A DNA stretch of 62,039 nucleotides, counting the filler, from Sphacelaria rigidula (lineage: Eukaryota), in assembly GCA_964200075.2 (NCBI GenBank). It is 11 parts of 11 records of this genome, joined end to end, with 100 filler letters (N's around TTAATTAATTAA, not from the genome) between each part and the next. Parts side by side here need not be neighbours in the genome. Positions count along the whole stretch, not along the records: positions 28,246 to 33,794 come from CAXNAA020026421.1; 10 more parts are not named here. One strand, 5' to 3'. The stretch's first letter is position 1. Every line of letters starts with the position of its first letter. Made by a program: the position numbers and the translations under genes. This document shows, piece after piece, positions 2,554 to 60,438 of the stretch. The notes under the pieces were generated by a model. That model did no database searches. It was not told where the DNA came from and saw only the letters and a program-made list of their open reading frames with translations.

Positions 2554-5398
2554 TTAACAAGTGAGTATGACGTCATCAAATACAATGCGGAGCGTGATCC
2601 AGATCTCAGTATTCAGAGCATCGGAACAACAATGCGAAATATGTATGCTAATCGCATGGCGCGGAGATTTACCTCAGGGAAATCGCATGGCCGCGATTCA
2701 TCACTGCTGGTGATATCACTGTCGAAATCTTTGAATCAACCCCAGAAATTCCGCGGAAATTGCTACACCTGCGGTAAACCAGGACATCAGGCCAGAGACT
2801 GTCGCTCCTAACTGCAGTAAAAAAATGGGAACAGGCCTGTAAAGTGGTGCATTTCCATCACACTGACAAGCATGATGATACCGAGTGTAGATCTCAACAG
2901 AACCGCGGGAATACAGCCGACAAACGCTGGAAACAACAACAACAACCACCATCGTCGCAGAAATCCCCGCCATCGAAATAACAACCGTGACAGCAGCAGC
3001 AACAACAACAGTAGGAGCAACCACGACAGCAACATCGGCAGCAACAACTCCAACGGACATCAACGCCAAGCCAACACAGCCGTCGCCGATCCAGCTTCTA
3101 CAACAGTACCATCGAGCTACAACGGCCTGGAAACTTCTTCATCAAGAGTTGCGACAGTGATGGATACATCCTCACCACCAAACGGTATGGGATTTTCTCT
3201 TCTTTCTGGTTCACATGTCACTGATACATCCGATCAAATTTCGTTTCAGTTGACAGTGAATAGCGGCAGCACTGGACATTTTTGGATGATCAGTTGCTAC
3301 CTGATATCGAACGTGAAATGGTCGAGCTGGTCAAACTCGATCCACCGATGACTACTTGAACAGCGGGACGCCATCTACTGCACGGTACAGCAAAAGGAGT
3401 TCTGAACACCGTGGTCATTGACTCTTAGGGGTACCAACGTCCCGTACGGCTCCCAGCCGTAATTGTCCCAGGTTTGGGGAAACATCTGTTCTCCCCTGTG
3501 CAAGCTCTTGCGAAGGGCGCTTCGACTATATTTTCTCACGAGTTCCATATAGACCTCGGAAAGTTTAAAGTGCAGATCAACAGTGACAGCAACGGGGCGT
3601 TACAGTACATAAGCGTGAGAGTTTCTCGGAAACCGGGTATATTAACAACAGCTCAGCATTAACAGCTACAATTATATCAGGAGAGTCTATGGGCATAGGG
3701 TCAGCCATTGTTGCAGAAGCCATTCACCACGACATGCCGGGAATTTCAGCAGCCATGTCTGCCACAGCGGGAGCAGAACCGACAGCTTTGACTACCACGA
3801 CAGGAGCAGACATTTGGCATAGGCGACTTGAACATCCCACGGAGCAGGTCATGCGCCGTCTACTGAATATTCCTGAATCAGGTGTGAACTTTTAGGGGTC
3901 ACTGTCACCTTGTGTAACGTGCAAGCTTAATAAGAGTGTACAGCAGGACCACCCAAAGACCGTAGACTCACGAACATTTCGGAACGACTGAAATTGGTCA
4001 GCACTGACCTAACAGGGCCGATTACGCCTATGGCGCAGGGCGGCTACCGCTACATGGCAAAATTTACGGATCACTTCTCGCGCTTGAAGGTAGTCTACTT
4101 CATCAAAACGAAGGATGAGACCCAAACTACGCTCTGCAGATTCATCCAAGATTTGGCTATTCCTTTAGGACTCCGTGTACACCGTCTGTGGTCAGACCGT
4201 GGGGGTGAATACATCGCAGACTATTTTAAGAAGTACTGCAAGACTACGGGCATCCGCCAAGAGTTCACTACTCCATACACTCCTCAGCAGAATGGCATCA
4301 GTGAAAGAGACGGGCGGAGCATCTTGAACGTTACTCTTTGTCTCCTAAATGAATCGAATTTGCCGAAATTTCTTGGGGGAGAAATTGCTGCAACTGCGGT
4401 CTTTTTAATCAATCTCCTACCGCACACGAGCATCGGCGGCGATACACCATATTTTCGAATGTTTCCCAAGCAACCGAAGCTATCATCCTTGCGGACAATC
4501 GGCTCGAGGGCAATTGTGCACAGGGAGCGTTATCACAGTAAGTTAGAAGAAAGGGCTTGGGAAGGAGTGCTAGTAGGGTATGATTCCGATAGTCCATCAT
4601 ACCGCATTTACAACCGCTACTCGGGGAAAATATCCAGCTCTAGAAACGTTACTTTCATCGAACAAGTAACAGGAGCTCCTTGCAATGATGAAGATTCTTC
4701 GACTTTGGATATCCAGGAACCTGACGTATCTGCAGTTGATCAGGAACAATACGACGACATCAACAACTTCAACATAAATATTTGTATATATGTATAGCTC
4801 AGCTAGAGGACAGCACCACGGAGGACAACTCACCGACTACAGGGCCGCCTATCGCCCAAAGGAGGTTGCGTTCAGCCGGTGGTCCCAATCATCATCCTTC
4901 TGAATCGGTTGACAAACGGCAAGCCAGTGAGCTAAAACGACTAGCTTACATGTCTTCTGCGGGTCAGCATGCTGCAGCAACACTGGAAATGGTATGTCAG
5001 TGTATAGGTACTGTTGGAGTTGAACAGGTTGCAACACCCGCGTCAGTTTCAGTACCTACCAGCTATCGACAGGCATCGAGTTCACCACACTCGACGAAAT
5101 GGAAAGCAGCCATGCTGGACGAACTTCAAAGTATCAAGAATCATGATGTAGCCGATATCGTCCAGGCCAGCTCTATTCCCAGCAACAACAACATCATCGG
5201 TACAAGGTGGGTCTTTAAGGTCAAAGCCGACGGGCGTTTTAAAGCCCGATTGGCGGTACAAGGTTGGTCTCAGAGGCATGGACTCGACTGCGGGAGTACT
5301 TTCGCTCCAGTTTGCAGGTTAGAAAGTCAGCGATTGTTACTGGCAATTGCTACTGCGAAAAATTGGCCTATTTTAGCCCTCGACGTACAAACTGCTGA
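2554..5398 (+). mobile_element. Degenerate Ty1/copia LTR-retrotransposon gag-pol (no LTRs in this scaffold)
   Basis: Copia domain order: gag, zinc knuckle CYTCGKPGHQARDC (2761-2802), protease-like TVNSGSTGHF, pre-integrase IWHRRLEHP, integrase (STDLTGP..SDRGGEY..TPQQNGISER), RT start (WVFKVKADGRFKARLAVQG..LDVQTA). Multiple stops and frameshifts. Confidence 0.95.
3994..4797 (+). pseudogene. Copia integrase core (rve) ORF
   Basis: D..D..E motifs: STD, SDRGGEY, QQNGISER. Downstream SH3-like GVLVGYDSDSPSYRIYN. Confidence 0.9.
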
Positions 5399-5549
5399 GT
5401 GATGCTACGGTAGGGGTGCACAAATAATTTCTGAGGTTAGAATTGTTAGGAGCTCCTTATTTCATCCAAAACACGACTTAACAACAAATTGTGAGAATTG
5501 AGGTTTAACTTCGAGATGAGGCTCAAGCCTAAAACAGTGCTTTCCCCAC

Positions 5550-5649
5550 NNNNNNNNNNNNNNNNNNNNNNNNNNNNNNNNNNNNNNNNNNNNTTAATTA
5601 ATTAANNNNNNNNNNNNNNNNNNNNNNNNNNNNNNNNNNNNNNNNNNNN
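5550..5649. other. Artificial scaffold spacer, first of 10. The others are 11199-11298, 16848-16947, 22497-22596, 28146-28245, 33795-33894, 39444-39543, 45093-45192, 50742-50841 and 56391-56490
   Basis: 100-bp N run with a central TTAATTAATTAA (stop codon in all six frames). Every intervening segment is 5549 bp (11x5549 + 10x100 = 62039). Confidence 0.98.
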
Positions 5650-5750
5650 CGAAAACCCGGCGGGCTCCGTCCCGGCACTGTAGGGATGCGAGGTCAATTG
5701 CCTTATGACTATGGCATGCATGATCATGAGTACACCCCTTCCCCCCCCCG
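5650..5750 (+). mobile_element. LINE family B 3' end followed by a C-tract
   Basis: Near-identical to 18700-18802, 22670-22775, 11470-11525(-) and 23251-23290. Ends GAGTAC+C-run. Confidence 0.7.
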
Positions 5751-7306: not shown

Positions 7307-8749
7307 CTGAGAAAGGGACACGGGTGTGCGTGCGGTGTGGAAGGGGGGGGAGGCGGTGTGAACACGACTGCGTGTGCATGAACACGGTATCCCTCTGAGG
7401 CGTACATAGAGACCTGGATGAAGTGATTATCGCGAGAGTAACCTGGTATTTGATGTCGTGGTGGGGTTTTCTGGATAGTTTCGAAACCCCGTGGTTTGTC
7501 GTGTTCAGCATAATCATTCGTGCGGGGTCTGCTTGATGTAGTCAACAAGAAGGTTTCCTCACGAGCCTTGTTCCTCGCTCAAACCCAGCTGATGGTGTAA
7601 TAACCTCATAGCCACCTCGAGAACGCAAGAAGGATTGGTTTCCTGAGGGTGTAGGTTGCCGTGATACTGACACTGGAACGACTCGCACTGTGGTTCGGCA
7701 AAACACACCAAATATCTCTCCTCATCCATACTGAGATTTTCACGGTAAGAAAGGGGATATGATCACGCGTCCTTTACAGGAATATGCGGTTTTCTAGCAT
7801 CAACACACGCACACAGTGCGTTCATCTTGTTTTACACAACAGCGCGAGACTTGCTGACGAGATACGTCGATATTATGCACGACAAGAGTACCCACCATGC
7901 TCGCTACCCAAGACTTTCGTATTGGAGTGCAGATGGAGCAACGCATGCGCACTAGGTGTTGCCTGATCATTCCTCGATGGACAAGAGGGTTCTATCCACA
8001 GGTAGTACCGTACTCGTGGAAGTGACTTGCCCTACGATCGCTCCTGGGTCATAAGCAAAGGCAGGTACAACTCGGCAGATGCAAAGATGTGCCGCTACTC
8101 TTCCCGAAAACAGCTGTTTGGACCCCAAGACGCCAGCCTTTGAGGACACCAAAAACAATGATGACGAAGCAACATACCGTCTGCACATGTCAACTGTAAG
8201 ATAAAACGACGTTTCCGTACACTCTGTCGGCATTGTAGTGACCGCGCCCGCATGACACCCAACACACGCGATAGCCTTCATCGGCACCAGCCGCAGGCAT
8301 AATCACCACGCACGTATTGTACCCACACGACATCAGAGTACGCGCCTGGTCAATTGGTAGAACTAGCCTCACGAGTTAGCGTGCGGTACTGCGCGAGGCA
8401 GACAGGCTGGCGAGTACTTCTCGCGGTATGCTCTCATGACAATTTTCATGCGGCACTGCTCAGTTGAAGTGCGATGATCAATCAAATCAAACAAAACTGC
8501 CCCCAGGGTAGGTATTGGAACAGGGGGGACGAGGGGGGCAAGACCCGAACGGAAAATATCATCAGCACATGGAGTACACCCGTGTTGTGTTACCGTGGGA
8601 CGTGTGAGGCATGAAAAATACGTATTAATCGAGTCGCATACTCCTTGTACTTCCGAATCTGAGATTTCGACCCGACTCAAGGGAGAACGAGGCAACATGT
8701 CTCAGGTACAATACCACCTACACCCACAGGTCAGAAAAAACAGGCATCG

Positions 8750-9470
8750 GAGGGGCGGAGCATGCTCAGTTGTCGCTTGCCATAGCCGTTTGATCTTCTG
8801 AGACAGAGTACTTTTCCTACTCCTGATAAAGACCCCTCCAAAATTCGAGCGCTCATTGCACTTATTTCCATACATTTCACAGCAACATTTTACACATCTT
8901 ACCCCCATCCTCTTTCACCGTCTGTGGCCACCATCTATCTCCTAGTGTAACGGTCATTTTCTCACCACCATCTAATGCATTCAACGATTTCATGACACCT
9001 TCGTTCACTTCCCACGTTTTCCCCTCGAACACGTCCCATTCCTTCCTTTATGGTTCACATTCTCCCACTACATGAGCTCTACGCTCTGTTGATTTGCCAC
9101 CAGGTCAATCGTGTTCATCTACGTCCTCCTTCACCCACCTGTTGATACCCGTATTTCTCGTTTCTGGTTGGTCCAGATCCTGCCCCTAACCCCGACCGCC
9201 TATCCCTGAGCGAAAAAGTGCCCTTGACCGGGCGGGGCCCTTAACCTGCCACAGATCCCCCTCTCAAAGCCGCGCTTTCAAGTTTCTCGCGGAGTCCATT
9301 GGGCTATGCAGATGTGTTTTCATCCCTATTCCCTCTGTCAACCTCCTGTATATCTTCAGGTGCTCTTCGTCGTCTACTTTCCGGCATAGCGCTTGTTTCT
9401 CCCTTAGTTGTGCCACGTCTCTTTACTTTCGCCTTGAACACCCGACATTTTCCCACGGACAATATCTCGT
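8750..9470 (-). mobile_element. LINE family A 3' fragment inside the kinase intron
   Basis: Collinear with 30890-31520. Has the same 3' terminal motif and C-rich end. Confidence 0.8.
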
Positions 9471-10802: not shown

Positions 10803-11530
10803 CTGAAAGTATGCCAGGTCATGGTGCAGGTGTGATAAGTGGCGTTCGTGTCTTGCGAAAATGTCTCGGCGCAATTTGACATGATTCGGTACGTCTACGT
10901 TCGTTCCTCTTCGAACACCGCACCTTCGAAGCATACGACGACGATGAACATCACCACAAACTACAGTAACAACAGCAGCGACAGCGACAGTAAGAATACG
11001 ACATACGAATCAACACGCCTCCCCACACCCAAAGGGCTAAGGATGTGCCACAATACTTACTGATGGGCGAGACGGTACAACTGATCGAAGGGAGTATTCA
11101 ACAAGTTCAAGCAACAGAGGAATTGACTATATTTTGCAAGTGTTACACTTTGCCAACCACGCGTTAGTGTGACGCTTGGAGGGGGGAGAGTGGGGGGGNN
11201 NNNNNNNNNNNNNNNNNNNNNNNNNNNNNNNNNNNNNNNNNNTTAATTAATTAANNNNNNNNNNNNNNNNNNNNNNNNNNNNNNNNNNNNNNNNNNNNCC
11301 ATTCTGCGGAGTTGAGATTCTCCCACGCCGCACAACATGATCTAGCTCGACAACCATCACGGTTACCGCAAAAAAAAAAAACGCAAGCGCGCAGGAAAAA
11401 AGCGGCAACCTGCTTGCCTAGCTCACGTAGTGAGTGGCGTGTTTCATAGCGTCATCGCCAACCGACGCCAACTCCGCCCCTACAAAGCCGGGACGGAGCA
11501 CGCCGGGTTCTCGCCGGACCAGGCTGAAAA

Positions 11531-11650
11531 GGGGGGGGGGGGAGGGGACGTCTTCACTCGTTGCTTGCCTTAGTCGTTTGACTATTGACCACGCACGCAT
11601 CCCTTTCGAGGCGGAACACCGTTCCTAAACGTAATAGAGACACTTCCAAC
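11531..11650 (-). mobile_element. LINE family A 3' end with C-tract, abutting a family B fragment (11470-11525)
   Basis: GTTGCTTGCCTTAGTCGTTTGAC..GCATCCCTTTCGAG motif next to a G-run on the + strand. Confidence 0.8.
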
Positions 11651-11749
11651 ATTGTGGGGCGTCGTATAAGCGCGGCAAGGGCATGCGAATACCAGGCTGC
11701 GACTCAGCTACTTGGGGGTAGCACTATATAATAGGGCAGAAGCCGTCAA

Positions 11750-14700
11750 CCGTAAACTGTGCATGCAGAACACGAACACTCGAACAGCAGACGGAAACAC
11801 AAGGGAACATGCTGAAGGAATAACCAACGAAAAAATAGAGGAAGATATAGAGAGCAAGAAAATTATCAAATATAAACATGAATAGAGAGCGGAATTAGAA
11901 AACAGAGCGGACGCTACAAGCCAAGGAATGGAGGCAAGAGCCGACAGACACCGGTGTCGATTTCCTTGTATGCTCTCTCTCCTCATCCCTAGTCAGGAAC
12001 ATCGCGGGCCGCTCTACGGGCCATTTTCTTGTTTTCATGTGGAACTCGTCGCCGTGTCTTCCTTCCGTTGCTGTGCAAAAGGTGACCGCTCCCTTTTCGG
12101 GGCTCTCAAGGCAGCACCCTCTTACTTGAGATGTACGAAGTAGGTCGGATTGGCGAGAGCCCTCGAGTTGCCATGCCTCCTCGAACTGTTTCTGCCGCTT
12201 CTCGATCCCCGGGTATCCTTTGCCGGCTTTCTTTGAGGTAGTCACCCCCACTCTTGCACGTGTTTGACTTCAGCATCGTAAAGGAGCCACTGCCTCTCTT
12301 CTCCCTTGCGCTGAGCAGCCCCCCGGTGTTTCGGTGGTCGGCCAGTCCCCGTACGTCCTTGTGTAGGCAATCGCCCGAACATAATGCACTTCGGGAGAGG
12401 TTTTCGTCGTCCCAGACGAGGACCCCCGCGAACCGGAGTCGACCGTTGCGAAATGTCGTTTCAAGACGGTCGCATTTGGGCACGTTACGCACGGCTCTGC
12501 ACGAAGGACTCTTGTGTCTGATGGGATTCTTCCGGCGACAGCCAATCACATCGAGTACGAGCTTATGGCGGGCAGCACGCAGACTCGCAAAGTCCCTTAG
12601 ACGCACTCTTCGACGTAGCACATCGGTTTAGACAGTCTCTGCTGCCCCCGCTTTAAGCTGCCGGATCTTAAGCGGTAGCTGAGTCTTGTGTCGAGCGTCG
12701 AGTTGGGAACTATACTTCTTGAGGTGCGACCGCGCAGCCACCTTCTCGCATGTTCGTACAATATCCACCTGGGTTACGGAAATCCATCTAGGATGCCAAT
12801 CTGGGGTATCGATACCCATCTGAGATGTCCATTTCCACCTGAGATGTTCATGTGGGATCTCGCATCCATGTGCGCCATCCATCGGTGATATTAGATCCAC
12901 ATAGGATAGGACATCGATCTGGGATCTTGTGCCTTAGAGTTAGGGGTAGGACTAACATCAGGGTTAGGGTTAGCATCAGGCTTAGGTTTAGCGTTAACTT
13001 TAGTGTTGACGTTAGCCTTGGGGTTACGGTAAGCGTCAGGTGTCCCAGATGGATATGTTTAGTCCGGGTGTGAGTCCATCTAGCATATCCGAAGTTTAGA
13101 TTGACGTTTGAGATGGCTTGAATGCCCCAGATGGGCATCCCAGGTGGACATCCTAGAAGAATACCCGCATCCCACATGAATGTCCTCGATGGATATCCAC
13201 ATCATGGATTGATATCTCAGATGGACTTGGCATCCTAGATGGGCATTCGAGAGGGATATCCCAGATGGATATTCCAGAAAGATACCCCAGACGAGTATCC
13301 TAGAAAGATATCCTAGGCGGATCTTCCCGGTAGACATCGCACACGGATGCTTCAAGTGGGGATGATTATCCATGTGCTAGATGGATATCCATATCCCAGA
13401 TGGGCATACCAGGTGGACGTTCTATACGAATATTCTGGATGGATATCCATACTCCAGATGGATATCCATACCCTCGATGGACTCCGCATATAGATATCCA
13501 TATCCTAGATGGATAGCCCTGATGGATGTGAAATTGCGGATGGATATCGGAAACAAATACCCGTATCTCAGATAAACATCTCAGATGGATATGGCATCCC
13601 AGATGGATAGCCTGATATATGTGACATCCCAGATGGAGGCTGCACGATAATTGAGTTATCCCCATGCACATCTGATACGACGCGAGGGTTCTATGGGAAA
13701 ATTCGAGTGTTCGCTAATAGGACGCCCAAGGTAAGCACACGCGGTCGTCCGTGTGTGCCGTTTGTTCGTGTGTACCGTTGGTCTACCGTCTCAGTGCGCA
13801 GTGCTGTCCGTGGGAAGCTGAATGCAGAACACAGATGGATGTCCGATATCGCTCGTCAGACCTCCTGGATTGAGTCTGATTGATTTAATTGTCGCACTTT
13901 AATTGACCCCCCTGAGATCCAGCCGTGGTCACACGGTGGACAAAGGTACACACAGAGGGAACAGCACCAGGACTTACCACGTGTTCCCCCCGCCATCGCA
14001 GCACTAGCCTGGCCCGACGCCGCTTCACTTTACTGAGCGGACGGGATGTGGTGCTATCGACGTGGTATGGCCGTTTCTTTGTTCTCTCCTCTAAAGTTAT
14101 CATCCCCAGTCTTCGGCGCGTTATGTAGTCGCACCAAGTCTAAAACGATGTTGCAAAATCTCCGCAAAACAACCTTAACCTTCACTGCGGAGGAGGTGTT
14201 GAATAGCAGCGGAGAGGGAACGCATCCCTGTTTGAGACCCTGATAGGCTGGTCAATCACCCTGATGAGAGTCAGTCATCAATCAGCTGTGTACACGAGCT
14301 CACGTGACATCGTGGAACATACGAATCATCATCTTGGTGGAACTCCGAAGCCGGCACGCAAATCCACAGGAGCGTGCGGTCGACGGGTGGTACGCCTGCC
14401 CCAGATCAACGAAGCACATATGTTGCTCTCCCGCCCCAACTCCTACAGCCGGTGTTTGACGAAAACCGTATCGGTAGTCGGTACTCCGTCCTTGGCGCCG
14501 GAATGCGCAGTGTTCTCCCCGGAGGTCACGATGTCATGGAACGCATTTATCAGCATGTGCCACAAGGCAGAAGCCCCTACAGTCGCCGATGGTTACCAGG
14601 TTCGGTCGTAGTAATTTCTTTGTGTAGTACTTTGGGAATGGCGTCCTTCTACGCCTTCGGCCCCTTGCCACACGTCGGTACAACGTCTATCATGTTGTGG

Positions 14701-16761: not shown

Positions 16762-16847
16762 TAGGGGGTGGGGGGGGGGGGGGAGCCATTTGTTGCTTGT
16801 CTTTGTTGTTTGACCATTGCCCCCGCATCCCTTCGGAGGCGGAGAAA
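16762..16847 (-). mobile_element. LINE family A 3' end with C-tract
   Basis: Shared terminal motif next to a long G-run. Confidence 0.75.
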
Positions 16848-16947
16848 NNNNNNNNNNNNNNNNNNNNNNNNNNNNNNNNNNNNNNNNNNNNTTAATTAAT
16901 TAANNNNNNNNNNNNNNNNNNNNNNNNNNNNNNNNNNNNNNNNNNNN

Positions 16948-17150
16948 AAACCTTTTACATATCTTATCCCCGTCTTGTTTCGCCGTCGGTGGCCACCATC
17001 CATCTCCTAGTATAGCCATCGTTTTCTCGCTACTGTCTAGTGCAACAGACGATTTCATGCCACCTTCGTTCACGTCCTGCATTTCCCCCTCTACGACGTC
17101 CCGTTCCTCACTTCACCTTCTGCCACTATATGACTTCTACAGTCTGTTGC
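16948..17150 (-). mobile_element. LINE family A fragment
   Basis: Matches 31045-31240 (MAILGDGWWPPTAKQDGDKICKRF). Confidence 0.8.
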
Positions 17151-18550: not shown

Positions 18551-18829
18551 CCCTTTCGGGGCCGGATTGCCACTAACTAGGGGAGAGGACCTGGTCTACA
18601 CGCAGGGTTCATTTTATGATTCAACATCATTTCCAATCGTTTCCCAGTGAAATGATGCCAATCCACAACGGGACCCTCCCCACCCCCCCCTCCCGACTGC
18701 GAGCCTTTCCAGCGAAAACTCGGCGTGCTCCGTCCTGGCTTTGCAGGGATGCGAGGTCAATGGTCATATGACTACGGCATGCAAGATTACGAGTACCCCC
18801 CCAGTGAGTTCACTAAGGTCCCAAGAGGG
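18551..18829. mobile_element. piggyBac-type MITE interrupted by a LINE family B 3' fragment (~18691-18802)
   Basis: CCCTTT..GAGGG ends with TTAG/TTGA flanks. Collinear with the uninterrupted copy at 60279-60438. Confidence 0.7.
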
Positions 18830-19281
18830 TTGAGCAACCAGTATCTCCTTGTTCCTATGCAAACACAGGGGGTATCAACGTGTTTTTTGGCTGACGGGCT
18901 TTCATGGGAAAGCGCCGCGCCCCGCGCCCCGGTGTAATTCAAAATGATAGAAATGGAATCGAGGCGGGTTTGTCCCAGTTCGGCGCCAAAATATCAATGG
19001 TTGGCACATTTTTTGAAACTCGTTAAAAAGCATCCCTGACCCTTACTTACCCCCGAACCCGAGGCATTCCAATTTTGGTACTGTACACTACCCATATTCT
19101 CACGATTTCAACACCGGAAACAACATCCTTCTGTTCTTCAGAAAAATAAAAACTTTTGATATGCACCTTCAAGGGTTTCGATCTCACATTTCCACCCCAC
19201 CTAACGGCTTCGGTTGAACCACTGAGCGTGGCGGCGACCGTATGCCGGTCACCTACGCGCTCAAAAATGCCTCCTCCGTAC

Positions 19282-22596: not shown

Positions 22597-22775
22597 AACT
22601 CACCCTTCGTGCGACTCGCCGGACACACCACGGCGCTTCGCGCTTGGTGATTGAGTACGAGTCTGGTCCGGCGAAAACCCGGCGTGCTCCGTCCCGACTT
22701 AGTAGGGATGCGAGGTCAATGGTCTTATGACTGTATGGCATGCATGGTCATGAGTACACCCCTCCCCTTCCCCTT
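22597..22775 (+). mobile_element. LINE family B 3' end with C-tract
   Basis: Same terminal motif ..GCATGGTCATGAGTAC + C-rich run. Confidence 0.7.
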
Positions 22776-22808
22776 CCATATGTTATGTGGCGCATGGAAG
22801 AAACTTAA

Positions 22809-22912: not shown

Positions 22913-23033
22913 CCCTTTTGGAACCCATTGACGGTTTTTGCTCTTGTGAATCGGCATCATTTTCAGTCATTTTCAAGTCAATATGATGATGCCGATTCAC
23001 GAAAACAGAAATCGTCAATGGGTTCCAAAAGGG
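22913..23033. mobile_element. piggyBac-type MITE, 121-bp near-palindrome
   Basis: TTAA-CCCTTTTGGAACCCATTGACG..CGTCAATGGGTTCCAAAAGGG-TTAT. Confidence 0.8.
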
Positions 23034-23037
23034 TTAT

Positions 23038-23680
23038 TGAGCGTCCACATGTTGGAGGTGTCTGTCTCTATAGGAGCAGGAACAGTGCTCCGTCTCGAAA
23101 GGGATGCGTGGTCAATTGTCAAGTGACTAAGGCAAGCGACAAGTTATTACGTACCCCCCTCGCGCTCCCACCCCCCCCCCCCNNNNNNNNNNGGGCAAAA
23201 GCAACGCACCAAGTTTTCCCCCCCCCCCCCCCCCCCCCCCCCCGCCCCCCTACGGCATGCAAGGCCATGAGTAACCCCCCCCCACCGCACCCACGGTGCT
23301 CCGTCGAGAGGGACGCGTGGTCAATGGTCAAACGACGAAGGCAAGAATCAAATGAATGAGTACGCCACTGGGTAGTAACTTGCCACTGAGGCGCTTGATA
23401 TCCCTGAGTAGGATATCCACGTGAAGCTGCAAGCACACGGGAATGATGAAGGCAAAGAAATACACACAGAGAACGTAAGATTGGCTAAGTTAAAGCGAAT
23501 GATCAAAGCCGCTCTCAATCCGCGCTCTACTCTCAATCTCACGAAAATATTGTTAGCTGTCTCCGTTAGGGGTAAGAACGGTGCTCCGTCTCGAATAAAT
23601 GCGTGGTCAATGGTCGAACGACTAAGTCAAGCGACAAATGAGCACGCCGCCCCCCGCTTCCCCCCCCCCCCTCCCTGATA
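23038..23680 (+). mobile_element. Cluster of LINE family A/B 3' ends separated by C-tracts
   Basis: Copies at ~23038-23182, 23251-23290, 23293-23365 and 23565-23675. Confidence 0.75.
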
Positions 23681-29995: not shown

Positions 29996-30889
29996 AAAAA
30001 TAAGGCCAGCCGCAGAAGTCGAAGAGGCAGTGATCGGAAGGTCGATGAATTATGATTACGGATTTGCTCCAAGTTCTTGTGGGCTGTCTAGCTCGCTTGT
30101 ACGTGTATGAAAATAGGGTACTCGGTACTTCATTCAAGCTCTACTGAATAAACACGTTGACAAAACCAGTTGGAGTATCCTCGATGAAGGCAATCGGGGA
30201 TATTGCGTCCCTCGAGGTGTCGAATTCCTCTCCAGTGTACTCTTGGGGATCAGCCAGTTGACTTAGTTGAGACCAAGGGCTTGCACAGGACAACAGAGAC
30301 GAGGAACAGGAGATCCTGAGAATGGGAAAGAATCGTATTTATGGGAACGGCAACAACTTTTTTTGGGGCTCGAAGTTGTGCGGAATCCCCCCCCCCCCTC
30401 CTCTCCTCCCCCTTACGCCCGGCTTCTCTCCCCCTACCTACCCTTCATGGTGCTCGGGGTTGGACAAAATCCTACCCAGCACCACACTTACATGACCCGC
30501 GTTTCTGGGGCTTTTGTACTGGTTTCCTCGTGCCTTTGAAGGTACTTTTAAGTAGGAAAGTGGACGTACTTCGAAAGAAAGGGTGTAGTGTACCTCACAT
30601 GAAACGATAACCTCATTGTGGTGGATTTTGCGGAGAACGGTACACCACTGAGGCACCTTTGAGTAGCCTCGCAACCTCCTGGTATGGCTCTCGACCATTA
30701 TGAGGTTAGTGTTTTATATAAGGTGCCTTGTTCTCAGCCTTCGGCACGGTTCAACTCTCTTGGGAAGAACTTTCGAAGGCAGACATTGCAGAAACCCCCA
30801 CAAAGAAGGTCATGCCATGTATGTGCTGTAGAAGGGTAGTATTGCCCACAATCGTGAGCACAATAACGGATACTATAGGGAGAAAGAGA

Positions 30890-33780
30890 CCGGGGGGGGC
30901 ACGGGGGGTACTCATTGGTTGCTTGCCTTAGTCGTTTGACCATTGACCACGCATCCCTTTCGAGACACAGCACCGTTCCTACTCCTAATAGAGACACCTC
31001 CAACACTCCGGCGCTCATTACGTTTCTTCCATAAATTCGACAAAAACCTGTTACATATCTTATCCTCGTCCTGTTTCGCCGTCTGTGGCCACCATCTATC
31101 TTCTAGTGTAGCCATCGTTTTTTCCGTGCTGTCTATGCATCAAACGATTTTGTGCCATCTTCGTTCACGTCTCGCATTTCCCCCTCCAGCACGCCCGTTC
31201 CTCCAAGTATACTTCACATTCTGCCACCATATGAGTTCTGCTCTTGATTGTTTTGTCACAGGGGCAATTCTGTGCATCTACTTCCTCCTCTCGACTGCTG
31301 GTATATATCTCTTTCTTCTTTCTGGCAGGTCCAGGTCCTCAACCCGAGATTACACTTTCAACTTTTTCGCCGCGTCCATGGGGTCATGCAGACATGTTGT
31401 CATTCCGATCCCCTCTCTCAACCACCCGTATATCTTCAGGTATTCTTCTTCGTCTACTTTGCGTCTGAGTCCTCCTTTTCCCCTTATATCTATCATATCT
31501 CTTACTTTTTGTCTTGTGCCCCGCGCCTTCATCTATGGGCACTATTTCGTTTTGTTTTCCTCCTATCTCCTTCCATATTTTCTCGACTTCTTCATCCCAC
31601 CTAATAGCATACCCTCTCGTACTTTTCTTCCATACAGTCCTATCAATTATAGCTGGCAATCGCTTTCTCTACATGCTCTTCACGCTATACTGTCATCGCA
31701 ATTTCCTCATGTCTCTGATCGGTATAAGTGAGTACATTCCCAACCCTACTATCAATGTTGTATTACTTGTCGTTTTCGAGCACCCAAGTATTTTCTTAGC
31801 TGCTGCCATCTATACCGTTTCCAACTTCTCCATTAACTTCACGTTCTCCTCCCATGCTTCTCCTGCATATTCCAGCTTCGGTACGATCACGTTCATCAGG
31901 ATACATCTCTTAACCCTAGTATCTAGGCGCGAGTCTCTGGGGATCACGTCCATCCTGCCTATCTATGCCTTACCCTTTTCTATTACTTTATTCATGTGTG
32001 CACCCCAAGAACAATTTTTTGAGATTTCTACACCGAGGTATGTATACTGGTCTACGGTCGGCAGTGCCTCTTCGCCCCACTTCCATTCGAACTCTACCGG
32101 ATTTTGTTCATCTTCGTTGCAGACGACCACCGCGCATTTGTTGACGTTCGCTGTAACTCTCCATTCCCCAGTGTTTTTTAGCGCCTTGACTATCTGTGTC
32201 TACAATCCTGTAGCTGTCACTGAAACCCCCCCAAAATTATCCACGAACATCAATCCTGATACTATGTCATCACCCACCTTGACTCCTTGCTTTGCTGCTT
32301 CTATTATTGCTGTTATCAGGTCATTAATAAACACCTTGGATAAAGTGGGTGATAAGGTACATCCTTGTGCAACTCCTTATGAAGTATCAAACCTTTTTCG
32401 ATATTCTTTCCCCGTCTAACATCATGGCACTTTTGGCACATGCTGTCATCTTCTTCACCAGTCCCAACATCCAGTTTTCCATCATGATTTCCACAATCCA
32501 ATTAAACATACTGTGTCATAAGTTATACGCCTTTTGCACGTTCAGAAAAAAACAGTACGTTGTCTGCCCGGTGTCTTCCCTACCCTGAGTAATCTTACCA
32601 AATGTGTACGCATGGTCTACGCAACTACCGTTTGGTCTAAAGCCTGCTTGCCCCTCGCTGATTTTCTCTTCCTTATCTAGCATCGTTCCTACTCTATCGT
32701 TCAGAATCTTACATAATATTTCCCCTACCGTGCTCATCAGCGTTATCCCCCAAAACTTTCCTGGGTCAGCCTTGTCTCCTTTTTTGAAAAGGTTGAAGAC
32801 TACTCCTTTTCTCCACCTCTAGAGCATGTACTCATTTTCCCAGATTCAGTTATACAGCATAACCATCATGGTGATCATTCCCTCTCCCCCGTGCTTTAGA
32901 AACTCACCCACCATTTCGTCTGCCCCTGCTGTCTTTCCGTTCTTGAATTTAGCTACGCATTCCTTTACCTCATCTCTGGAAAATTCTCTCTGCAACTATC
33001 TCGAGCCACCATCCTTCCGTTTTGACGTCTCTACATCTGTCTCTGCCCACGCGTTGACTTCTTTATCGAATTCCGTGTCGAACTTCGTGCTCGGTTTCGG
33101 TGTCTCTAGTTTACGGTTGTGCTCTATTAGCACTTGTGTCTTTCCCTTTGAACTACCTACCATCTTACCACTCTATGCCCGGAGTGTGGCTATCCTCTTG
33201 TCTATCTTCCCTGCCTGGATTCCCATTATCCTCATTATCCCTACCCACATTTTTTTATGCCGCCATCGAAATCTCCATTTTTTCTATCCACTACATCTTC
33301 CCATGCTTCCTTCGTTTTCTTCTGTATCATCTTTTTCGCTTCCTTTCGAGCTTTAGTATACTTCTCCCATCCTCCCGTAGTTTTACTCGATATGCATCTC
33401 GCGCGGGCCTCTCTCCTGACTCTGATAGCCTTTTTTACTTCCTCATCCCACCATTTTACTGTTCTGTTGCATACAATCAGTTTCCTCCCTACGACTTTAC
33501 TAGCTGTATTCTCGACCAACCGCTGCCATCCTTCTACAATCTTCGCTCCTGCCTGATTTCTTTCCATTCCGGTATCAACTGTACCTACACGTTCCAACAG
33601 CTTGAAAAAGAATATTACATTTTTGGCCATCTCTTCTTGAAACTTTCGATGCTTTTTTCCCATATCTCCTTTATCGATTCTCCATTTGTACAACTTCCTA
33701 CCCCGCCTATTTCTTTTACTCGTAGCTGTAGCCAAAATACACCAAGGCGTAGTAGATGTAGCATGCAGGATCCTGGATGA
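30890..33780 (-). mobile_element. LINE family A, RT-encoding, 5' end cut by the scaffold end, degenerate
   Basis: DKADPG..GIT.MSTVG..ISEGQAGFRPN.SCVDH..FFLNVQKAY; GVAQGCTLSP; QYTYLGVEIS. ORF ends ..VNGQTTKASNQ* then GTAC+C-tract. Confidence 0.92.
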
Positions 33781-34627
33781 TGACCAGGGGACAANNNNNN
33801 NNNNNNNNNNNNNNNNNNNNNNNNNNNNNNNNNNNNNNTTAATTAATTAANNNNNNNNNNNNNNNNNNNNNNNNNNNNNNNNNNNNNNNNNNNNCAGAGC
33901 CCGATGCGTGGTTTTCGGTCGGAGTACCCACTCGCGACCAAAATATCGCAATTGCCATGTCACAACCATTGACGGGTGTCATTTTGACTGTCCATGTTGT
34001 TGGATACACCACCTCATGGGCTCAAGTTCTGCAGCAAGAAAGTCCGCCATGTCTACATATCAACCACCCGTGTACATGTACCGCACAGAAGAGCACCTGG
34101 GTCAATAAGCAAGCAGCCAGAGAGCAGCATCTGGAGGGGACCGATGCAAGGCTGAACACCAATGCCGAGCTTCAGCGCACTGCAAATAGATGAGGGGTCT
34201 TGGCAAGTTGACCAGCAAGCATCACTTGCAATCCAAACTGGGATTTCGGTAAAACTTGCTATTTCCGCCTTTTAATTAATTAGAACCCGCTGCTTTTGGT
34301 GAGCTGGCCGCAGCACACATACAAAAACGTGAGATTGACTCAAAGCAAAGCACTGCAAGGGTACGCTTCACATTATTCACGCAAGAAGCGGAGCACAAGA
34401 CAAAGAAGCAACAACAAAACTAGGGGAAAATCGCTTCAGAGACGTTGCCCTGCACGCGGTGCGAAGCAACCGACTTCCCCCTCCCCTCCGCCGGCCCTCA
34501 CCAGGCGCAAAAGGTGTACGGAAAGGAGAGCAGCCCGCAAGGGTCGAAGCGTCTTACATTGCCGTCACGAGGAGCAAGGCAAGCCAGCACAACACACACA
34601 CACACACACACACACACCACGACTCAC

Positions 34628-35274: not shown

Positions 35275-35464
35275 CTGGCATGAAATAACAAGACACAAAC
35301 GGGTGCGAGGAGGTGGCGAAAACATTACACGACACAAAAATTGGGCGGGAATATCAACGTAGAGTACTGTTGCACAAGCGACTCACATACCTGGTTCCCA
35401 CTTGCTTCAGGAAGTTTCGAGTGTTGAGTGATTCCGCGATATTCTCCCTCCCCCCAAACCAGCC

Positions 35465-35520
35465 TGGGATACGTGGTCAATGGTCGAACGACCAAGGGAA
35501 GCAATGAATCCGTACCCCAG
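35465..35520 (+). mobile_element. Very short LINE family A 3' insertion with target-site duplication, in a METH intron
   Basis: GGGATACGTGGTCAATGGTCGAACGAC.. flanked by CCCAAACCAGCC at 35453-35464 and 35521-35532. Confidence 0.75.
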
Positions 35521-36081
35521 CCCAAACCAGCCCCAAAACTGTCACTAAGAAACTGGCCGTACAGCGCATGATCGCTGGTTTCAGACTAAATGAAGCGCCT
35601 CATATGGGCGACATTGACGAAACTGATCCAAAGCCACTTTTCTGGAGAGGGGGGCGGCGTTATCGCGGCATCAGTCTAGCTATCGTAGCAGCATTTGAAA
35701 AAGAGAAACTCGAGACGCCTCGGAGCTATCGAAAACGCTACGCAGACCCACCGCGCAACGCGTTCAAAGCTTGTTGCTTGCAGTCAGCCCTCTTACAAAA
35801 TCAGCACAACGAACCCCACGACAGTACAGTGCAGTACAGTGCAGTGCGGTACATTCATTCATGTGCGTGCGCTGGAGAGCAAGCAACAATTATAGAATCG
35901 AAAATTTGAGCGGCAGCTTCCAGTCCCACGGCTGGATAAAAACCTCAATCTCCAGCTCACGAAGCCAACTGAAGTGATGGTCTGGCAACGCATCGCACTA
36001 CAGAGGGACCATCACTGGATGACGAGATGAATCATGTGATGTATCGAAAAACACGATTACTGTATTGATTATTAACGGCAC

Positions 36082-37545: not shown

Positions 37546-37705
37546 TTGATGAATAAAACTACTGTAGTACGACGCTACACAAAAATGAACTATAGTGGGG
37601 CCTCCCTTCGATTTTACTAAGCGAATCAAACCGAAACAACAGCGGGAACACCTAACGAAAAGATAAAAAAAGAAGAAGCAAGAAGTAGAATGTGGGGGTC
37701 CTCGC

Positions 37706-37920
37706 CTGCTGTCATCAGCGTAAACCTCTACATCCTCTCCCACCCTCGCCGCAGGGTACATCCCCACGATACCCGTCAGTTGCAGCGTCTTCTCCGCGAC
37801 GATCTGCTGCAGCATCTTCTGCGCATCGTCGAACAACTTCCTCGCCTCCTCCCCCACAGTCTCATCTTTGAAGATTTTTGGGTAGCCTCGGTTAGGGTAT
37901 CGTCCGCGAAGTTCCCATGT
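37706..37920 (-). CDS. METH: Methionine synthase exon
   Basis: TWELRGRYPNRGYPKIFKDETVGEEARKLFDDAQKML..GMYPAARVGEDVEVYADDSR. GC donor. Confidence 0.95.
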
Positions 37921-39370: not shown

Positions 39371-39443
39371 GGGGTGGGGGGCGTACTCATGTGTTGCTTG
39401 CCTTAGTCGTTTGACCATTGACCACGCATCCCTTTCGAGACGG
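39371..39443 (-). mobile_element. LINE family A 3' end with C-tract
   Basis: Shared terminal motif. Confidence 0.8.
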
Positions 39444-44362: not shown

Positions 44363-45447
44363 TTGAAAGTAGAAAACAAAGGCTAAAGTCGTGAAACACT
44401 TTTGAAACGCAGCACACGCACGCACATATGTTCGAAAGTATAAGTAAAGTGCATTTGTGAGGATGAGCAACCCTCTTTCTGAGTTATGTGGACGATTTTT
44501 TTAGTTCCTCCGGCCAAACTCGAAGGCTAAGTCTGACCCAAAAGCCCAACCGAAGAAAGACCGAGAACGCTCACCCACGGCCTAACGGCTCTCCTGAAGG
44601 TCGCATGCTAATTCCTCTTTTTATAACGCTTATCATCTTTAGAACTCAAGCCCTGACCCGCTGTCCCCACCATGTTTGTTGTTATGACATCTGCACACTT
44701 CTTAGAGGAAAGCTAGGGGTCTGTACCTTGTACTCCTCAGCCTCCTTCCGCATTCTTTTCGGTGCAGACAAATGTCGCCTGGAATACGCCTAATGAGTAT
44801 AATAAGGAGATGGATCCACTGCGCGGTGCATTTACATCATCATCATCACATAAGTGTATGTACACATTGAATTCACCGGTGTGAACAGCACAGACGCTTA
44901 TTATTATGTAGTACACACAGTGTGGGGTGATTTCATCTCCACCAGGGCGTGGTAATGTAACAGTGAGAAAATCATCACGCGGTCGATGTTGGGATTGCTG
45001 AGAATCCCAAGCCTCCGTACTATTGTATGCCCCCCCCCTCGTCCACGCAGCCCACCCCCCCCCGGCGCTCCCCCCCCGAGAAGTGGCATCCCNNNNNNNN
45101 NNNNNNNNNNNNNNNNNNNNNNNNNNNNNNNNNNNNTTAATTAATTAANNNNNNNNNNNNNNNNNNNNNNNNNNNNNNNNNNNNNNNNNNNNGTCTGTGC
45201 GTGTTTTTTCGGTGCTAGGTGTGTAGGTGTTGTGTTGCCTCGTTGTGTCTTGTCTGCTGTATTACCAGACCTTGGGCCCGCTTGGACTAACGACCACTTC
45301 CCGACCCGCCGCATTTCTTAACCTGCGTGCAGCTCTGGGTTCCAACCTGTACAAAACTGCTTGTGGATAGGACTCGGGACTGGTAGTTATGGGGCCAATC
45401 CTCTGTCAAAAGGGGATTGTGAAAAAGGGGATAATCTCCTTCGTTTA

Positions 45448-50841: not shown

Positions 50842-50906
50842 GGGGGGCGTGGGCAATGGTCAAACGACTAAGGCAAGCAACAAATGAGTACCCCCCCCCA
50901 CCCCCC
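50842..50906 (+). mobile_element. LINE family A 3' end with C-tract
   Basis: CAATGGTCAAACGACTAAGGCAAGCAACAAATGAGTAC+C-run. Confidence 0.8.
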
Positions 50907-53000: not shown

Positions 53001-55825
53001 AAAGAGAGACTATGAGGTCGAAATTTATGCCGAGCTTTCACTGGAAGAGCCCTGGGGCGCTGACGGGGTAGCATTGCAAAGTGAATGCTAGGAGGGCTCG
53101 AAATATTCGGACCAACGTTGCGCAGGAAGAAGAATCGCAATTTGTAATATATCCATACCTATATCTGAACAGGGCAGGTGACACCAGTCAATACTCGGGC
53201 TGAATGGCCTCACTCAAAATTTCTGCGATGGAGTTAGGGGCTCAACTTCTTGCGAGATATTTTTTGTCATTTTTCCAATTTCACGAAGTGAATTTGGCTT
53301 CTGTTCACGAGGTGAATTTGATTTATGCTCCGGGTAAAAATTCGACTGACCGTTTTTTGCGACTCGATTTTTGCGACATGTTATTTGCGACTCGATTTCT
53401 GATACTTATTTTTGCTCGATTTTTCCACTCTAAAAAGCCAATTGATTTCGGTTTTTGGGGAAAAACTTTGTCAAACAGAAAACAAACGCATATTGCTCCA
53501 AGGGGCACCTGGATACACAACAGTCGTTGCTGCCTACATAGTATCATCCTCCAGATCGAAGTCTTGAGTGAGAACGCCCAGCGTGCAGCTGCTTGACGCG
53601 ACCACTGCGTTCTGCCACGGACCCTTCCCCACGTACCCAAAAAGAGGGCAACATCCCTGTACAGACAGTAGCAATGCTAGCGGATCTTACGTTCTGACAG
53701 TCTGGCAGGCAGCCGGCAAGGTGGTGCTGGTAGTGTCCTTCTAGTGATATCGACTTACAGTGTACTGGAGCGGAGTTTGCAGGTGAATATTTCGGCGATT
53801 GCCTCACCTGCAGTTCGCCCAGATGTTGCGGATTTTTTCACGATCTTACTGAGTAACATCCATACATTTTCGTGTGGAAATGTACCAGGCGGTGGACAAA
53901 GATTTCTACAGTCAGTACAAACACGATGTTAAAAGTGTACTGCGCACAATGTGTTGTGTGTGCTATCGTCCCATCTCTATTGGGCGCCGGTCTCCACCTT
54001 TTGGTATATGTGGGCGCACCAGCCGCTGCTGTGTTACCGTACAGGTTTGCCCAAGATACATACAGCGGCGGAGGCGGCCTTTCTCTCCCCCGTGCGCCAC
54101 CTGGGGTAAACGCACGCTGTAGCTGCAACACGGACAGCTTTACAGATTGTGGTGTAGCGATATCCCGCGTACACGTTGGCCGCAGATACAAGCGGCTGCG
54201 TTCATGATGTGGCGGACTGCAGAATACAGCACGAAATCAATGCAGGACAGGGATAGGCTAAGGATGTCACGTCCTGTGATGTGCTTTGTCACTCCGCACC
54301 CTGCCGCTGTGCAGTGAGCAGGTAGTACCACCGAATGCGTCACGCTGCGGTTGGTACGCAGTGTCGAACACAGCAGTAAGGAGCGTATTTTAAATACATG
54401 GATGTGTGCTTTAAGACCGATGCGCACGCACACACACAGCAACTACTCTCGCCATCATCCATCGATCAAGGTGGTACCCCCCCTCTCAAATAGGGTACCT
54501 GCCCCCCCCCCCCCCACTCCCCTCCTCCGGCCCCAGAATGACGTTTGGGTGACCTGGGGGATGGTGGTGCCGCCATTTCCCGATATGGGGCCCCTCGGCC
54601 CAGCGTGCAGCTGCCTGACGCTTGACGCTGTCTCCTGTCTGCCCGAGAAACAGCAGTTTGCAACTTATAGCCCATGGCATACCGGGAAGCAAGTCCCGTA
54701 CGTGTACTTGAAAACAGGCGTGGTAGTGGCTGGGACTAGTAGTGCGGGACGACCTAGCGGGAATTTGCCGGGAAACAGCTCGCGTCTCAGGGCCGGCTTG
54801 CTGCGGATCCTTGCGAATGAAAGGCGACGTCGATAACACAAACACAATTTATGCTTCGATACAACTTCACGCTTGCGTGCAACGACAAATCACCATGCCC
54901 CGGGTGCGTGCGGCAGACCTTCATTCTAGATCCACTTCTAGCAAGGGCCCAGCCGAGACCACTCCGGTTTTACCGCCGCGATCCAAGACCGCAACGTCAC
55001 CAACACCGAATTTTTTTTTTGGAAGCGCCCTGGACACAGGGCAATCTATTTCAATGAATAAAAAAGTATTTACATTTTTCGTTACTTGCCTCTACGAGCA
55101 GGGGAGTACCGTTCGAGTCAGAGTCGGACCTTCGACAGCAAGGGGCCTACAAGACGCCTGACATGCTTCTGCAGGTTCCCATGGCTGTGAGGGGACCCAA
55201 AAACGAGGTATATCTGTTTGCAGGACGGCTATGTAGACACAACCTTTCAAAGGCACGTCGGGCAGTGTGTACCCGATATTTTGATGTTGTGAAAAGTGGA
55301 GACCCGACCTATGCCTACAGCATTAACCAGCCCAGTGCTGTTGTTTCCCTTTTCAAAGCCCACACAAGTCATTGTAACTGATTGCAGCCGGGCGCTGTGC
55401 GACTTTCCAAAATACCACAATATCGGATACACCCCCACCCGACACACACCCTTGCAATCTTTCGACAAAATGGGAAAGAAGTGTAAAGAGCAAGTAAAGC
55501 AAGTACAACGCGACTTGAAGAACCAAAACCCTAAAGAAAAAGAAAAAATGCGTGAAGTTGTTGAAGCCTTCCTTTCGTGTGTGTGCTACGTCGACCCTCG
55601 CAAACCCCCTAATTTTTTCTCGTGCTTGTTCACGTTTTTAACGGCGTATATACCGGGTTATCAGGGGGGAACGACGCATCCGCTGGGATACGAAGCCTAA
55701 ACACTTCCGCGCTGCCCCGGCGTAGGATGTACTGTAACCAGTTACCATAGCTTTTTCGTGTTGCTCTTCTCCAGTTATTGCCGCGGCCCAAATTGCCGCG
55801 GTGTTTACAGTTTCCATGTGTCCGT

Positions 55826-56097
55826 CGTGACACTTTCTACGATAGCCCCCCCCCAAAACCAGCTAAAAGTGTCACGAAAAAGATAGCCATACAGCGCCTN
55901 NNNNNNNNCCTGATGTCCGGGTTCAGGCTGCATGAAGCGCCTCATATTGGCGACATTGGCTAGAACGACCCCAAGCGTGGGAATTCCCAGCTTCTCGTTG
56001 TGCTCGGCTTTTCCCATTTCGATTTTTTTTTACGTGAAGATTTCGCCTCCCAAAACCATGGACTTTTGGGGGGGGGGCTAACATAGAAAGTGTCTCG
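55826..56097. mobile_element. MITE-like element; related copy at ~35440-35665
   Basis: Inverted ends CGTGACACTTTCTA..TAGCCCCCC / GGGGGGCTA..TAGAAAGTGTCTCG. Internal GAAGCGCCTCATAT..GCGACATTG is shared with 35590-35617. Confidence 0.6.
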
Positions 56098-56202
56098 TGT
56101 CGCCGTAGTGTGCCGGTCGGTAAAAGTAGTACATCTGTACTGTGATCTGCGCAGTCTCACGTACTTTCAAAACACGAACCTATAAGAAATGGTGTGAGCA
56201 GT

Positions 56203-60278: not shown

Positions 60279-60438
60279 CTCTTTCGAGACCGGACTCCCA
60301 CTCAACAGGGATGAGGACCTGGTCTGCACGCGACGTCGGTTTGTGAATCGGCATCATTTTCAGTCGTTTTCAAGTGAAAATGATGCCGATTCACAACGGG
60401 CCCTAACCCCCGGTTAGTCCACTTCGGTCCCAAAAAGG
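60279..60438. mobile_element. piggyBac-type MITE, 160-bp family; partial copy at 45651-45729
   Basis: TTAA on both sides, CTCTTT..AAAAGG ends, shared palindromic core. Confidence 0.78.

Follow-up and report, generated by a model that had tools for sequence, protein, structure and literature searches.

Long interspersed nuclear elements (LINEs) integrate by target-primed reverse transcription (TPRT) and usually end in poly(A) or short A-rich tandem repeats, and textbook accounts give them tails of poly(A) or of short A-rich or microsatellite repeats. In mammalian L1, which carries a poly(A) tail, the endonuclease nicks a T-rich bottom strand and the T-run primes on the poly(A); in R1 and SART1/TRAS, read-through 3' sequence anneals to the nicked target, and microsatellite-specific LINEs were reportedly described by Kojima and Fujiwara in 2004. 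The available part of PMC3747384 describes the I element, which ends in TAA repeats, and eel UnaL2, which ends in TGTAA repeats and for which slippage has been proposed, while the relevant passages of PMC4421812 report Jockey, RTE, L1 and CRE LINEs, assigned by RepeatClassifier, in kelp and Ectocarpus genomes. In this study, we analyzed a stretch of 62,039 nucleotides (nt), filler included, from Sphacelaria rigidula (GenBank assembly GCA_964200075.2; hereafter the window), which holds a degenerate LINE copy at 30908-33794 (minus strand) and a set of shorter copies, grouped into families A and B, nearly all of whose 3' ends are followed by a run of C. In our view, family A probably represents LINEs that combine a conserved 3' end with an oligo(C) tail of their own and prime from G-runs.

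The window consists of 11 excerpts, each exactly 5549 nt, joined by N44-TTAATTAATTAA-N44 spacers (5550-5649, 11199-11298 and so on, with a period of 5649 nt). Its LINE ends were found by BLAST of the 30908-33794 copy against the window and by inspection by eye; external copies come from an exact-pattern scan with a 28-nt core of the terminal block, and public sequencing is represented by Logan contigs (DNA-type) of four runs, X1-X4, covering three samples from two studies. The end statistics cover 19 ends, namely 14 from the window (10 family A, four family B) and five from other assemblies. Runs are written as Cn, for n consecutive C.

The LINE family and its C-rich 3' ends

The copy at 30908-33794, recognized from open frames, RVT_1 and BLAST, is a family A element comprising the reverse transcriptase (RT) and the C-terminal region; stops and frameshifts are numerous in it, the excerpt boundary cuts it at 33794, and the endonuclease region lies beyond this 5' cut. 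The original prediction, made from the sequence alone, held that the LINE at 30890-33780 encodes an RT and ends in ..VNGQTTKASNQ, TGA and GTAC with a C-rich run directly behind, and both statements hold. RVT_1 matches two open reading frame (ORF) pieces weakly, below the Pfam cut-off (E 1.1e-4 and 3.4e-3), and a 100-amino-acid (aa) RT piece shows 77-79% identity to the full-length LINE proteins P0001 and P0002. Read directly on the minus strand, the end frame is GTC AAT GGT CAA ACG ACT AAG GCA AGC AAC CAA TGA (..VNGQTTKASNQ-stop), with the stop TGA at 30914-30912, GTAC at 30911-30908 and CCCCC GTG CCCCCCCC GG at 30907-30890; GTAC is thus adjoined directly by CCCCCGTGCCCCCCCCGG, and the C-rich tail C5-GTG-C8 occupies 30892-30907 (minus strand), its junction being bridged by X1-X3 contigs.

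An intact relative is found on contig CBRFFM010000043.1 (L006), to which the 30908-33794 copy shows 74.8% identity over 2852 nt. The ORF of L006 is complete and stop-free over 1360 aa, with 88% identity to P0002, and in it Exo_endo_phos (171-393), Exo_endo_phos_2 and RVT_1 (741-990) all score above the Pfam cut-offs; RVT_1 reaches E 6.7e-32 in L006 and 9.8e-31 in P0002, and Exo_endo_phos and Exo_endo_phos_2 are above cut-off in P0002 as well. The Pfam search of L006 reported no RNase H family, and a Cys/His-rich motif near the C-terminus of the LINE protein was seen by eye. Homologues of the RT include human L1 ORF2p (E 6.6e-21) and R2 RTs. The element thus comprises an N-terminal region, an apurinic/apyrimidinic-type endonuclease (APE), the RT and a Cys/His-rich C-terminus, with the ORF stopping 4-5 nt before the element end. 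Copies have a common 3' end and variable 5' ends and, judged by its domain content, the element is a very abundant APE-type non-LTR (non-long terminal repeat) retrotransposon family. The closest named relatives of its protein are Ectocarpus sp. proteins, with 47-54% identity over most of the ORF. It resembles in this respect the kelp and Ectocarpus LINEs of PMC4421812, whose "Jockey"-type label also fits the architecture; in its relevant passages that paper is silent on 3' tails. Three results indicate that the host is probably an ochrophyte, most likely a brown alga or a near relation, and not an animal: the Ectocarpus matches of the LINE protein, the 86% identity of a methionine synthase exon (37705-37917, minus strand) to a Discosporangium protein, its best named relative, and the label "algae metagenome" of one of the four public runs.

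The claim that the element has almost no 3' untranslated region (UTR) is likewise borne out, since the UTR is the 4-nt GTAC in the 30908 copy and GTACG in L006, whose ORF finishes ..VVNGQMTKASNK with nothing but GTACG between its stop and C13. Nucleotide-level conservation marks the last 70-100 nt, whose closing letters are always ..ATGAGTAC(G), and with a UTR of only 4-5 nt this block sits within the coding region. In the window copy it spans 30908-30980 (minus strand; sequence reading and L006 alignment), reads ..GGAACGGTGCT..GGGATGCGTGGTCAATGGTCAAACGACTAAGGCAAGCAACCAATGAGTAC and takes in the last codons, TGA and GTAC. In the alignment of L006 with the 30908-33794 copy, identity reaches 94% in the final 100 columns and 64-87% in the other 28 bins, and the terminal block is therefore more constrained than the RT core.

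Families A and B have the terminal block in common (77-88% identity over 38-58 nt). Family B does not keep the LINE reading frame and has only this block in common with the LINE. Its units in the window are located at 5650-5733, 11478-11518 (minus strand), 18697-18796 and 22661-22757, and three visible 5' ends lie within about 6 nt of each other (..AGYCTGGTCCGGCGAAAACCCGGCGTGCTCC..). At a length of about 100 nt, family B is probably a short non-autonomous partner or else the end of a sister LINE.

The original prediction counted about ten family A and four family B ends, nearly all followed by C-runs and none by poly(A); all 14 were recovered by BLAST and inspection by eye, and the composition check agrees with the remainder of the statement. 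Over the 19 ends, the 20 nt past the terminus amount to 380 bases, of which 259 (68%) are C, against a background of 25.7% (binomial P 4e-67). At least 10 C are found in these 20 nt at 17 of the 19 ends, compared with 22 of 718 control GTAC sites of the window, a control set that includes the LINE ends themselves. The two ends with fewer than 10 C are 23363, followed by GCC only (5/20), and 18796, with C6 after the C of GTAC (8/20). A C-run of at least six lies within 30 nt of the terminus at 15 of the 19 ends, and the run is C on the LINE sense strand at every one of them. No A-run stands at any of the 19 termini; the highest A count in the 20 nt after a terminus is eight, at 39383, where the A residues lie downstream of the C-run. 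Continuation of the homology past the C-run toward an A-rich tail was also looked for and not found, as the BLAST alignments of all copies end at or inside the run and the flanks beyond are unrelated. After the fixed terminus, the tails vary in length (from 3 to about 30 nt) and are often interrupted, as seen in the 14 window ends and seven external copies.

The same ends occur outside the window. The 28-nt core scan returned five external ends, on three metagenome contigs and two contigs in bacterial metagenome-assembled genome (MAG) bins, all of which read ..ATGAGTAC(G) or ..ATGACTACG and continue with C8, C11, C10, C9-T-C9 and C13, and two further, more diverged copies in one of the same bins have C-rich tails too. 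The LINE contigs JBDWQI010000325.1 (L004) and CBRFFM010000043.1 (L005/L006) are filed in bacterial MAG bins, one of them titled Sulfitobacter sp., and the same bin (G002) holds eight more LINE-like protein matches on other contigs; these contigs are probably contamination from a host alga. L006 also carries an inverted, diverged LINE 3' block at 4730-4790 (minus-strand view), about 550 nt upstream of the intact ORF, whose reverse complement reads ..GGTGCTCCGTCTC..GGTCGGTCAATGGCAAGGCA..CATGAGTTC without a C-run directly after it. The 3' block scan of viral contigs gave no matches.

In the public runs, contigs of all four cross the 30908 junction from the LINE end through the C-run into unique flanking sequence with 0-2 differing letters. 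In X1, 177 + 118 (295) contigs have loose ends at the LINE terminus, the consensus being poly-G on the plus strand and hence poly-C in LINE sense; X2-X4 give similar numbers of loose-end contigs and the same poly-C consensus. The LINE part is matched by 22,118 to 50,468 contigs per run, whose summed depth is not a copy number.

Set beside the I element and UnaL2 as described in the available part of PMC3747384, the family shares a conserved 3' block, a non-A tandem-repeat tail of variable length, heavy 5' truncation and, in family B, a possible short partner with only the tail region in common. In contrast to them, the tail of this family repeats a single C, the 3' UTR is 4-5 nt long and the block lies inside the coding region; in addition, the candidate stem-loop has no covariation support, and retrotransposition and slippage are putative. 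The stringent-LINE examples given in that part of the paper include no homopolymer C tail. As judged from its sequence, the element matches the "stringent, repeat-tailed" kind of LINE except for the single-C unit and the 4-5 nt 3' UTR, and it does not end in poly(A). No description of C-tailed LINEs was found in the full-text literature, in which the spelling "poly(C)" is unsearchable and which does not extend to Repbase or Dfam, and the available passages of the Phaeoexplorer preprint and of PMC12592211 contain no text on LINEs. Two candidate reports proved unrelated: the poly-C of PMC5381506 refers to internal tracts of the L1 3' UTR and that of PMC9942856 to the terminal inverted repeat of a DNA transposon. 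As far as the full-text literature shows, what appears to be new here is the C homopolymer tail on an otherwise familiar, repeat-tailed type of LINE.

Upstream C-runs and target sites

C-runs are also found on the other side of the insertions. Eight 5' junctions are visible, and in five of them a run of at least five C lies within 20 nt upstream, a feature of 1.76% of window positions (P 9e-8); the three junctions without a 5' C-run have a C-run downstream. In X1, poly-C stands immediately upstream of a unit starting TGCTCC in 252 contigs (212-241 in the other runs). This TGCTCC start of the tail-only units, about 66 nt before the terminus, marks a preferred 5' end, and contig joints that go back 64 indicate head-to-tail arrays. 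Outside the window, the unit in L016 begins immediately downstream of C5.

Two sites in the window bear on the target. The 50-nt family A end at 35466-35515 (plus strand) lies between 12-nt direct repeats CCCAAACCAGCC (35453-35464 and 35521-35532, found as the longest shared string; feature 35453-35532), and this target site duplication (TSD) begins inside a C6 run (35450-35455); the short tail CCCAG separates the terminus from the second repeat. By TPRT geometry, the left edge of a TSD marks the bottom-strand nick, and a TSD starting with C therefore implies a primer ending in G that could pair with a 3' oligo(C) of the RNA.

The second site is the family B unit at 18697, which lies inside a repeat, termed D, at a position that reads ..TAACCCCCGG.. 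(C5) in another D copy (60403-60420). The filled site has C-stretches on both sides, of 17 nt and 6 nt, compared with C5 in the empty one, and the C-rich stretch at 18676-18696 upstream of the unit exceeds what a C5 target would give. This paralogous empty site (one pair, 77% identity) is suggestive of a C-run target. Repeat D is about 150 nt long, contains an internal hairpin (GAATCGGCATCATTTTC..GAAAATGATGCCGATTC) and occurs in three copies (18590-18696 with 18803-18870; 60310-60470; 22940-23055). One of them has a family B LINE tail inserted at 18697 and another a family A tail near 23056. Repeat D may be a miniature inverted-repeat transposable element or a short interspersed nuclear element.

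Origin of the C-rich tail

The original prediction left two options side by side, "C-tailed and/or C-tract-targeting", and the variable C tails together with the five of eight upstream C-runs, the TSD starting in C6 and the C5 empty site support this reading and appear to point to both a tail and a C-run target. In the mechanism that we consider probable, the element would be transcribed through its own C-run, and its protein would show "stringent" recognition of the conserved terminal block. Bottom-strand nicking by the endonuclease would take place within or next to a G-run (a C-run when read in the element's sense), and the resulting 3'-OH, ending in G, would pair with the RNA's oligo(C) and prime reverse transcription, homopolymer slippage altering the tail length from copy to copy. 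Every insertion would leave a fresh C-run as a preferred new target, which would account both for the surplus of C/G homopolymers and for the head-to-tail clustering of very short tail-only units. We know of no cellular process or enzyme that adds poly(C), and the source copy carries the run in its DNA; read-through, block recognition and C-run initiation with slippage would therefore make up the simplest model.

The scheme follows the one put forward for the TGTAA repeats of UnaL2 and the TAA repeats of the I element (PMC3747384), except that tail and target would be complementary homopolymers. It resembles L1 in the complementarity of tail and target, in insertions that favor sites of the tail's own base, in new copies placed in or beside older tails, and in the combination of an APE endonuclease with a homologous RT. 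It differs from L1 in having C in place of A, so that polyadenylation cannot supply the tail, in a 3' end that is conserved and not "relaxed", and in its single ORF with a different C-terminal region. R1, SART1/TRAS and the microsatellite-specific LINEs are similar in that a 3' flank copied into the transcript could pair with the target and a simple repeat flanks many copies; here, however, the target would be a short C-run of a kind found at countless sites, and none stands at three of the eight 5' junctions.

An alternative, which we regard as unlikely, is pure target specificity, in which the element has no C-tail of its own and inserts only into pre-existing (C)n microsatellites in the way of microsatellite-specific LINEs, every flanking C being target DNA. 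Such an origin would account for the C-runs on both sides of short units (five of eight junctions, and poly-C upstream in the 252 X1 contigs), for the C5 empty site and for the 22 of 32 C-runs of at least 7 nt that lie away from recognized A or B ends. However, three of the eight 5' junctions lack a C-run, although long ones stand on their 3' sides. Moreover, CCCAG intervenes between terminus and TSD in the 35466-35515 copy, the flanking C-stretches of the filled D site are far longer than the C5 of the empty one, and the 3' C-runs (17 of 19) are much more regular than the 5' ones.

Non-templated tailing, which we hold to be improbable, would have the RT add G to the nicked primer before engaging an RNA that ends in GTAC(G), or a host nucleotidyl transferase append oligo(C) to the RNA. 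Other LINE RTs are known to add bases without a template when they initiate and to jump between templates; the tail length varies among young copies (C8 to C13), a tail made by the RT requires no cellular poly(C) signal, and head-to-tail arrays of tail-only units are also compatible with template jumping. However, the intact source copy already has C13 in its DNA, so that a template is at hand, non-templated tailing requires neither the interspersed non-C bases nor the preference for C-run targets, and a poly(C)-adding enzyme for its host variant is, to our knowledge, lacking. If it were nevertheless the true mechanism, each retrotransposition would build a non-poly(A) homopolymer tail de novo, a natural base-specific tailing activity tied to TPRT that would seed G/C homopolymers at about one per 2 kb in the window.

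An artefact (dark-cycle poly-G/poly-C or homopolymer errors), or a C-run internal to a longer element with an A-rich tail, is very unlikely because of the external ends, the bridging contigs and the poly-C loose ends in four runs: homopolymer lengths are error-prone and one tail adjoins an N10 gap (23183-23192), but the runs lie within contigs, with unrelated unique sequence beyond them, homology between copies ends at the run, the base is C on the LINE sense strand at all 19 ends, and the runs are present in five other assemblies and in contigs of the four sequencing runs.

Several points weigh against an oligo(C)-tailed LINE that primes from G-runs. Homopolymer lengths are unreliable in short-read assemblies, and the N10 gap adjoins the tail at 23183. 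Three of the eight visible 5' junctions have no upstream C-run, and the boundaries of all eight were placed by eye from alignments. The TSD evidence is thin, with one clear 12-nt duplication and 8-nt and 9-nt repeats near chance level, and for the full-length L006 copy, which has no second 5' UTR copy to set its 5' boundary, no TSD was found, only a chance-level 8-mer. Hairpins seen by eye at the 3' end found no support, either from covariation (none of the 12 pairs predicted by RNAalifold shows a compensatory change) or from single-sequence folding (z-scores of -0.93 to +0.21). The architecture (APE, Exo_endo_phos_2, RT, no RNase H, Cys/His C-terminus) is consistent with a Jockey/CR1-like clade, a label that comes from architecture and not from phylogeny. 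G-run priming, which we infer from TPRT geometry, read-through transcription, slippage and the origin of the tail are all reconstructed steps. Finally, the window has 32 C/G runs of at least 7 nt in 61 kb, 10 of them at family A or B ends; 22 are at no recognized A or B end, and not all C-runs are therefore explained.

If the oligo(C)-tailed reading is correct, an abundant LINE that is C-tailed and favors C-runs offers a natural test of whether tail-primer pairing, and not polyadenylation, sets the start of reverse transcription. It would also explain the many C/G homopolymers of this genome. C/G runs break short-read assemblies, could form G-quadruplexes or i-motifs and may be hot spots for further insertion. 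Retroposon finders based on poly(A) will miss such elements and their tail-only derivatives, and contigs carrying such LINEs end up binned into bacterial MAGs.

Individual copies and other features of the window

The remaining copies were delimited by BLAST and by eye, except where stated. On the minus strand, an older family A copy (8749-9429) has its terminus at 8762, where it reads GAGCAT, and a degenerate C-rich tail at 8749-8761. The family A 3' fragment at 11531-11651, with terminus 11550 and the tail GTCCCCT-C12 (11531-11549), is next to the 5' part of the family B unit at 11478-11518, on the same strand. Another 3' fragment, at 16764-16847, ends at 16784 with the tail C14-A-C5, and this family A copy seems to run on across the spacer at 16848-16947: its minus-strand pieces 16784-16847 and 16948-17140 align to 5089-5163 and 4816-5015, respectively, in the sense coordinates of L006, so that neighboring excerpts may not be independent. 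The fragment at 39371-39443 (minus strand), cut by the excerpt end, has its terminus at 39383 and the tail GC6AC4.

On the plus strand, the family B unit at 5650-5749, cut by the excerpt start, ends at 5733 with the tail ACCCCTT-C9; that at 18697-18802, delimited also by the empty-site alignment, ends at 18796 with the tail C6 inside the C-run of repeat D; and that at 22661-22777 ends at 22757 with the tail ACCCCTCCCCTTCCCCTTCC and has another ..GAGTACG terminus just before. Family A 3' fragments on this strand are located at 23056-23182 (terminus 23154, with a C-rich tail entering the N10 assembly gap at 23183-23192), at 23545-23675 (terminus 23645, GAGCAC, with the tail GCCGC6GCTT-C12-TCCC) and at 50842-50906 (cut by the excerpt start, terminus 50891, tail C8-A-C6). 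Between the first two of these lies a head-to-tail cluster recognized by eye (23218-23363), composed of C26-G-C6, a 25-nt family B end (23250-23274), C9ACCGCACCC and a 71-nt family A unit (23293-23363), then only GCC.

Long C-runs without a recognized LINE end are found at 61993-62039 (C14-A-C27), 54477-54515 (C7 and C14), 45030-45077 (C9, C9 and C8) and 30387-30398 (C12), all on the plus strand. Hidden family members at such runs were considered and set aside, GTAC being present just upstream in 4 of 22 cases against an expected 6.6%, which is too weak. At 55820-55860 (plus strand) and 56068-56110 (minus strand), two copies of ..GACACTTTCTAYGWTAG in inverted orientation, each continuing with C9 or C10 and AAAA, stand on either side of an N9 gap at a distance of about 220 nt and may represent another C-tailed family or an inverted duplication.

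The window also contains elements of other kinds. Its sole Rfam match, with none at the LINE end, is a 5S rRNA gene at 13956-14078 (minus strand; RF00001, 63.7 bits). A Ty1/copia-type pol at 3934-5402 (plus strand) has rve and SH3_retrovirus in 3934-4797, and RVT_2 starts in 4740-5402, where the excerpt end cuts it. An exon of a B12-dependent methionine synthase (Met_synt_B12) at 37705-37917 (minus strand) shows 86% identity to a Discosporangium protein and 74-75% to Ectocarpus proteins.

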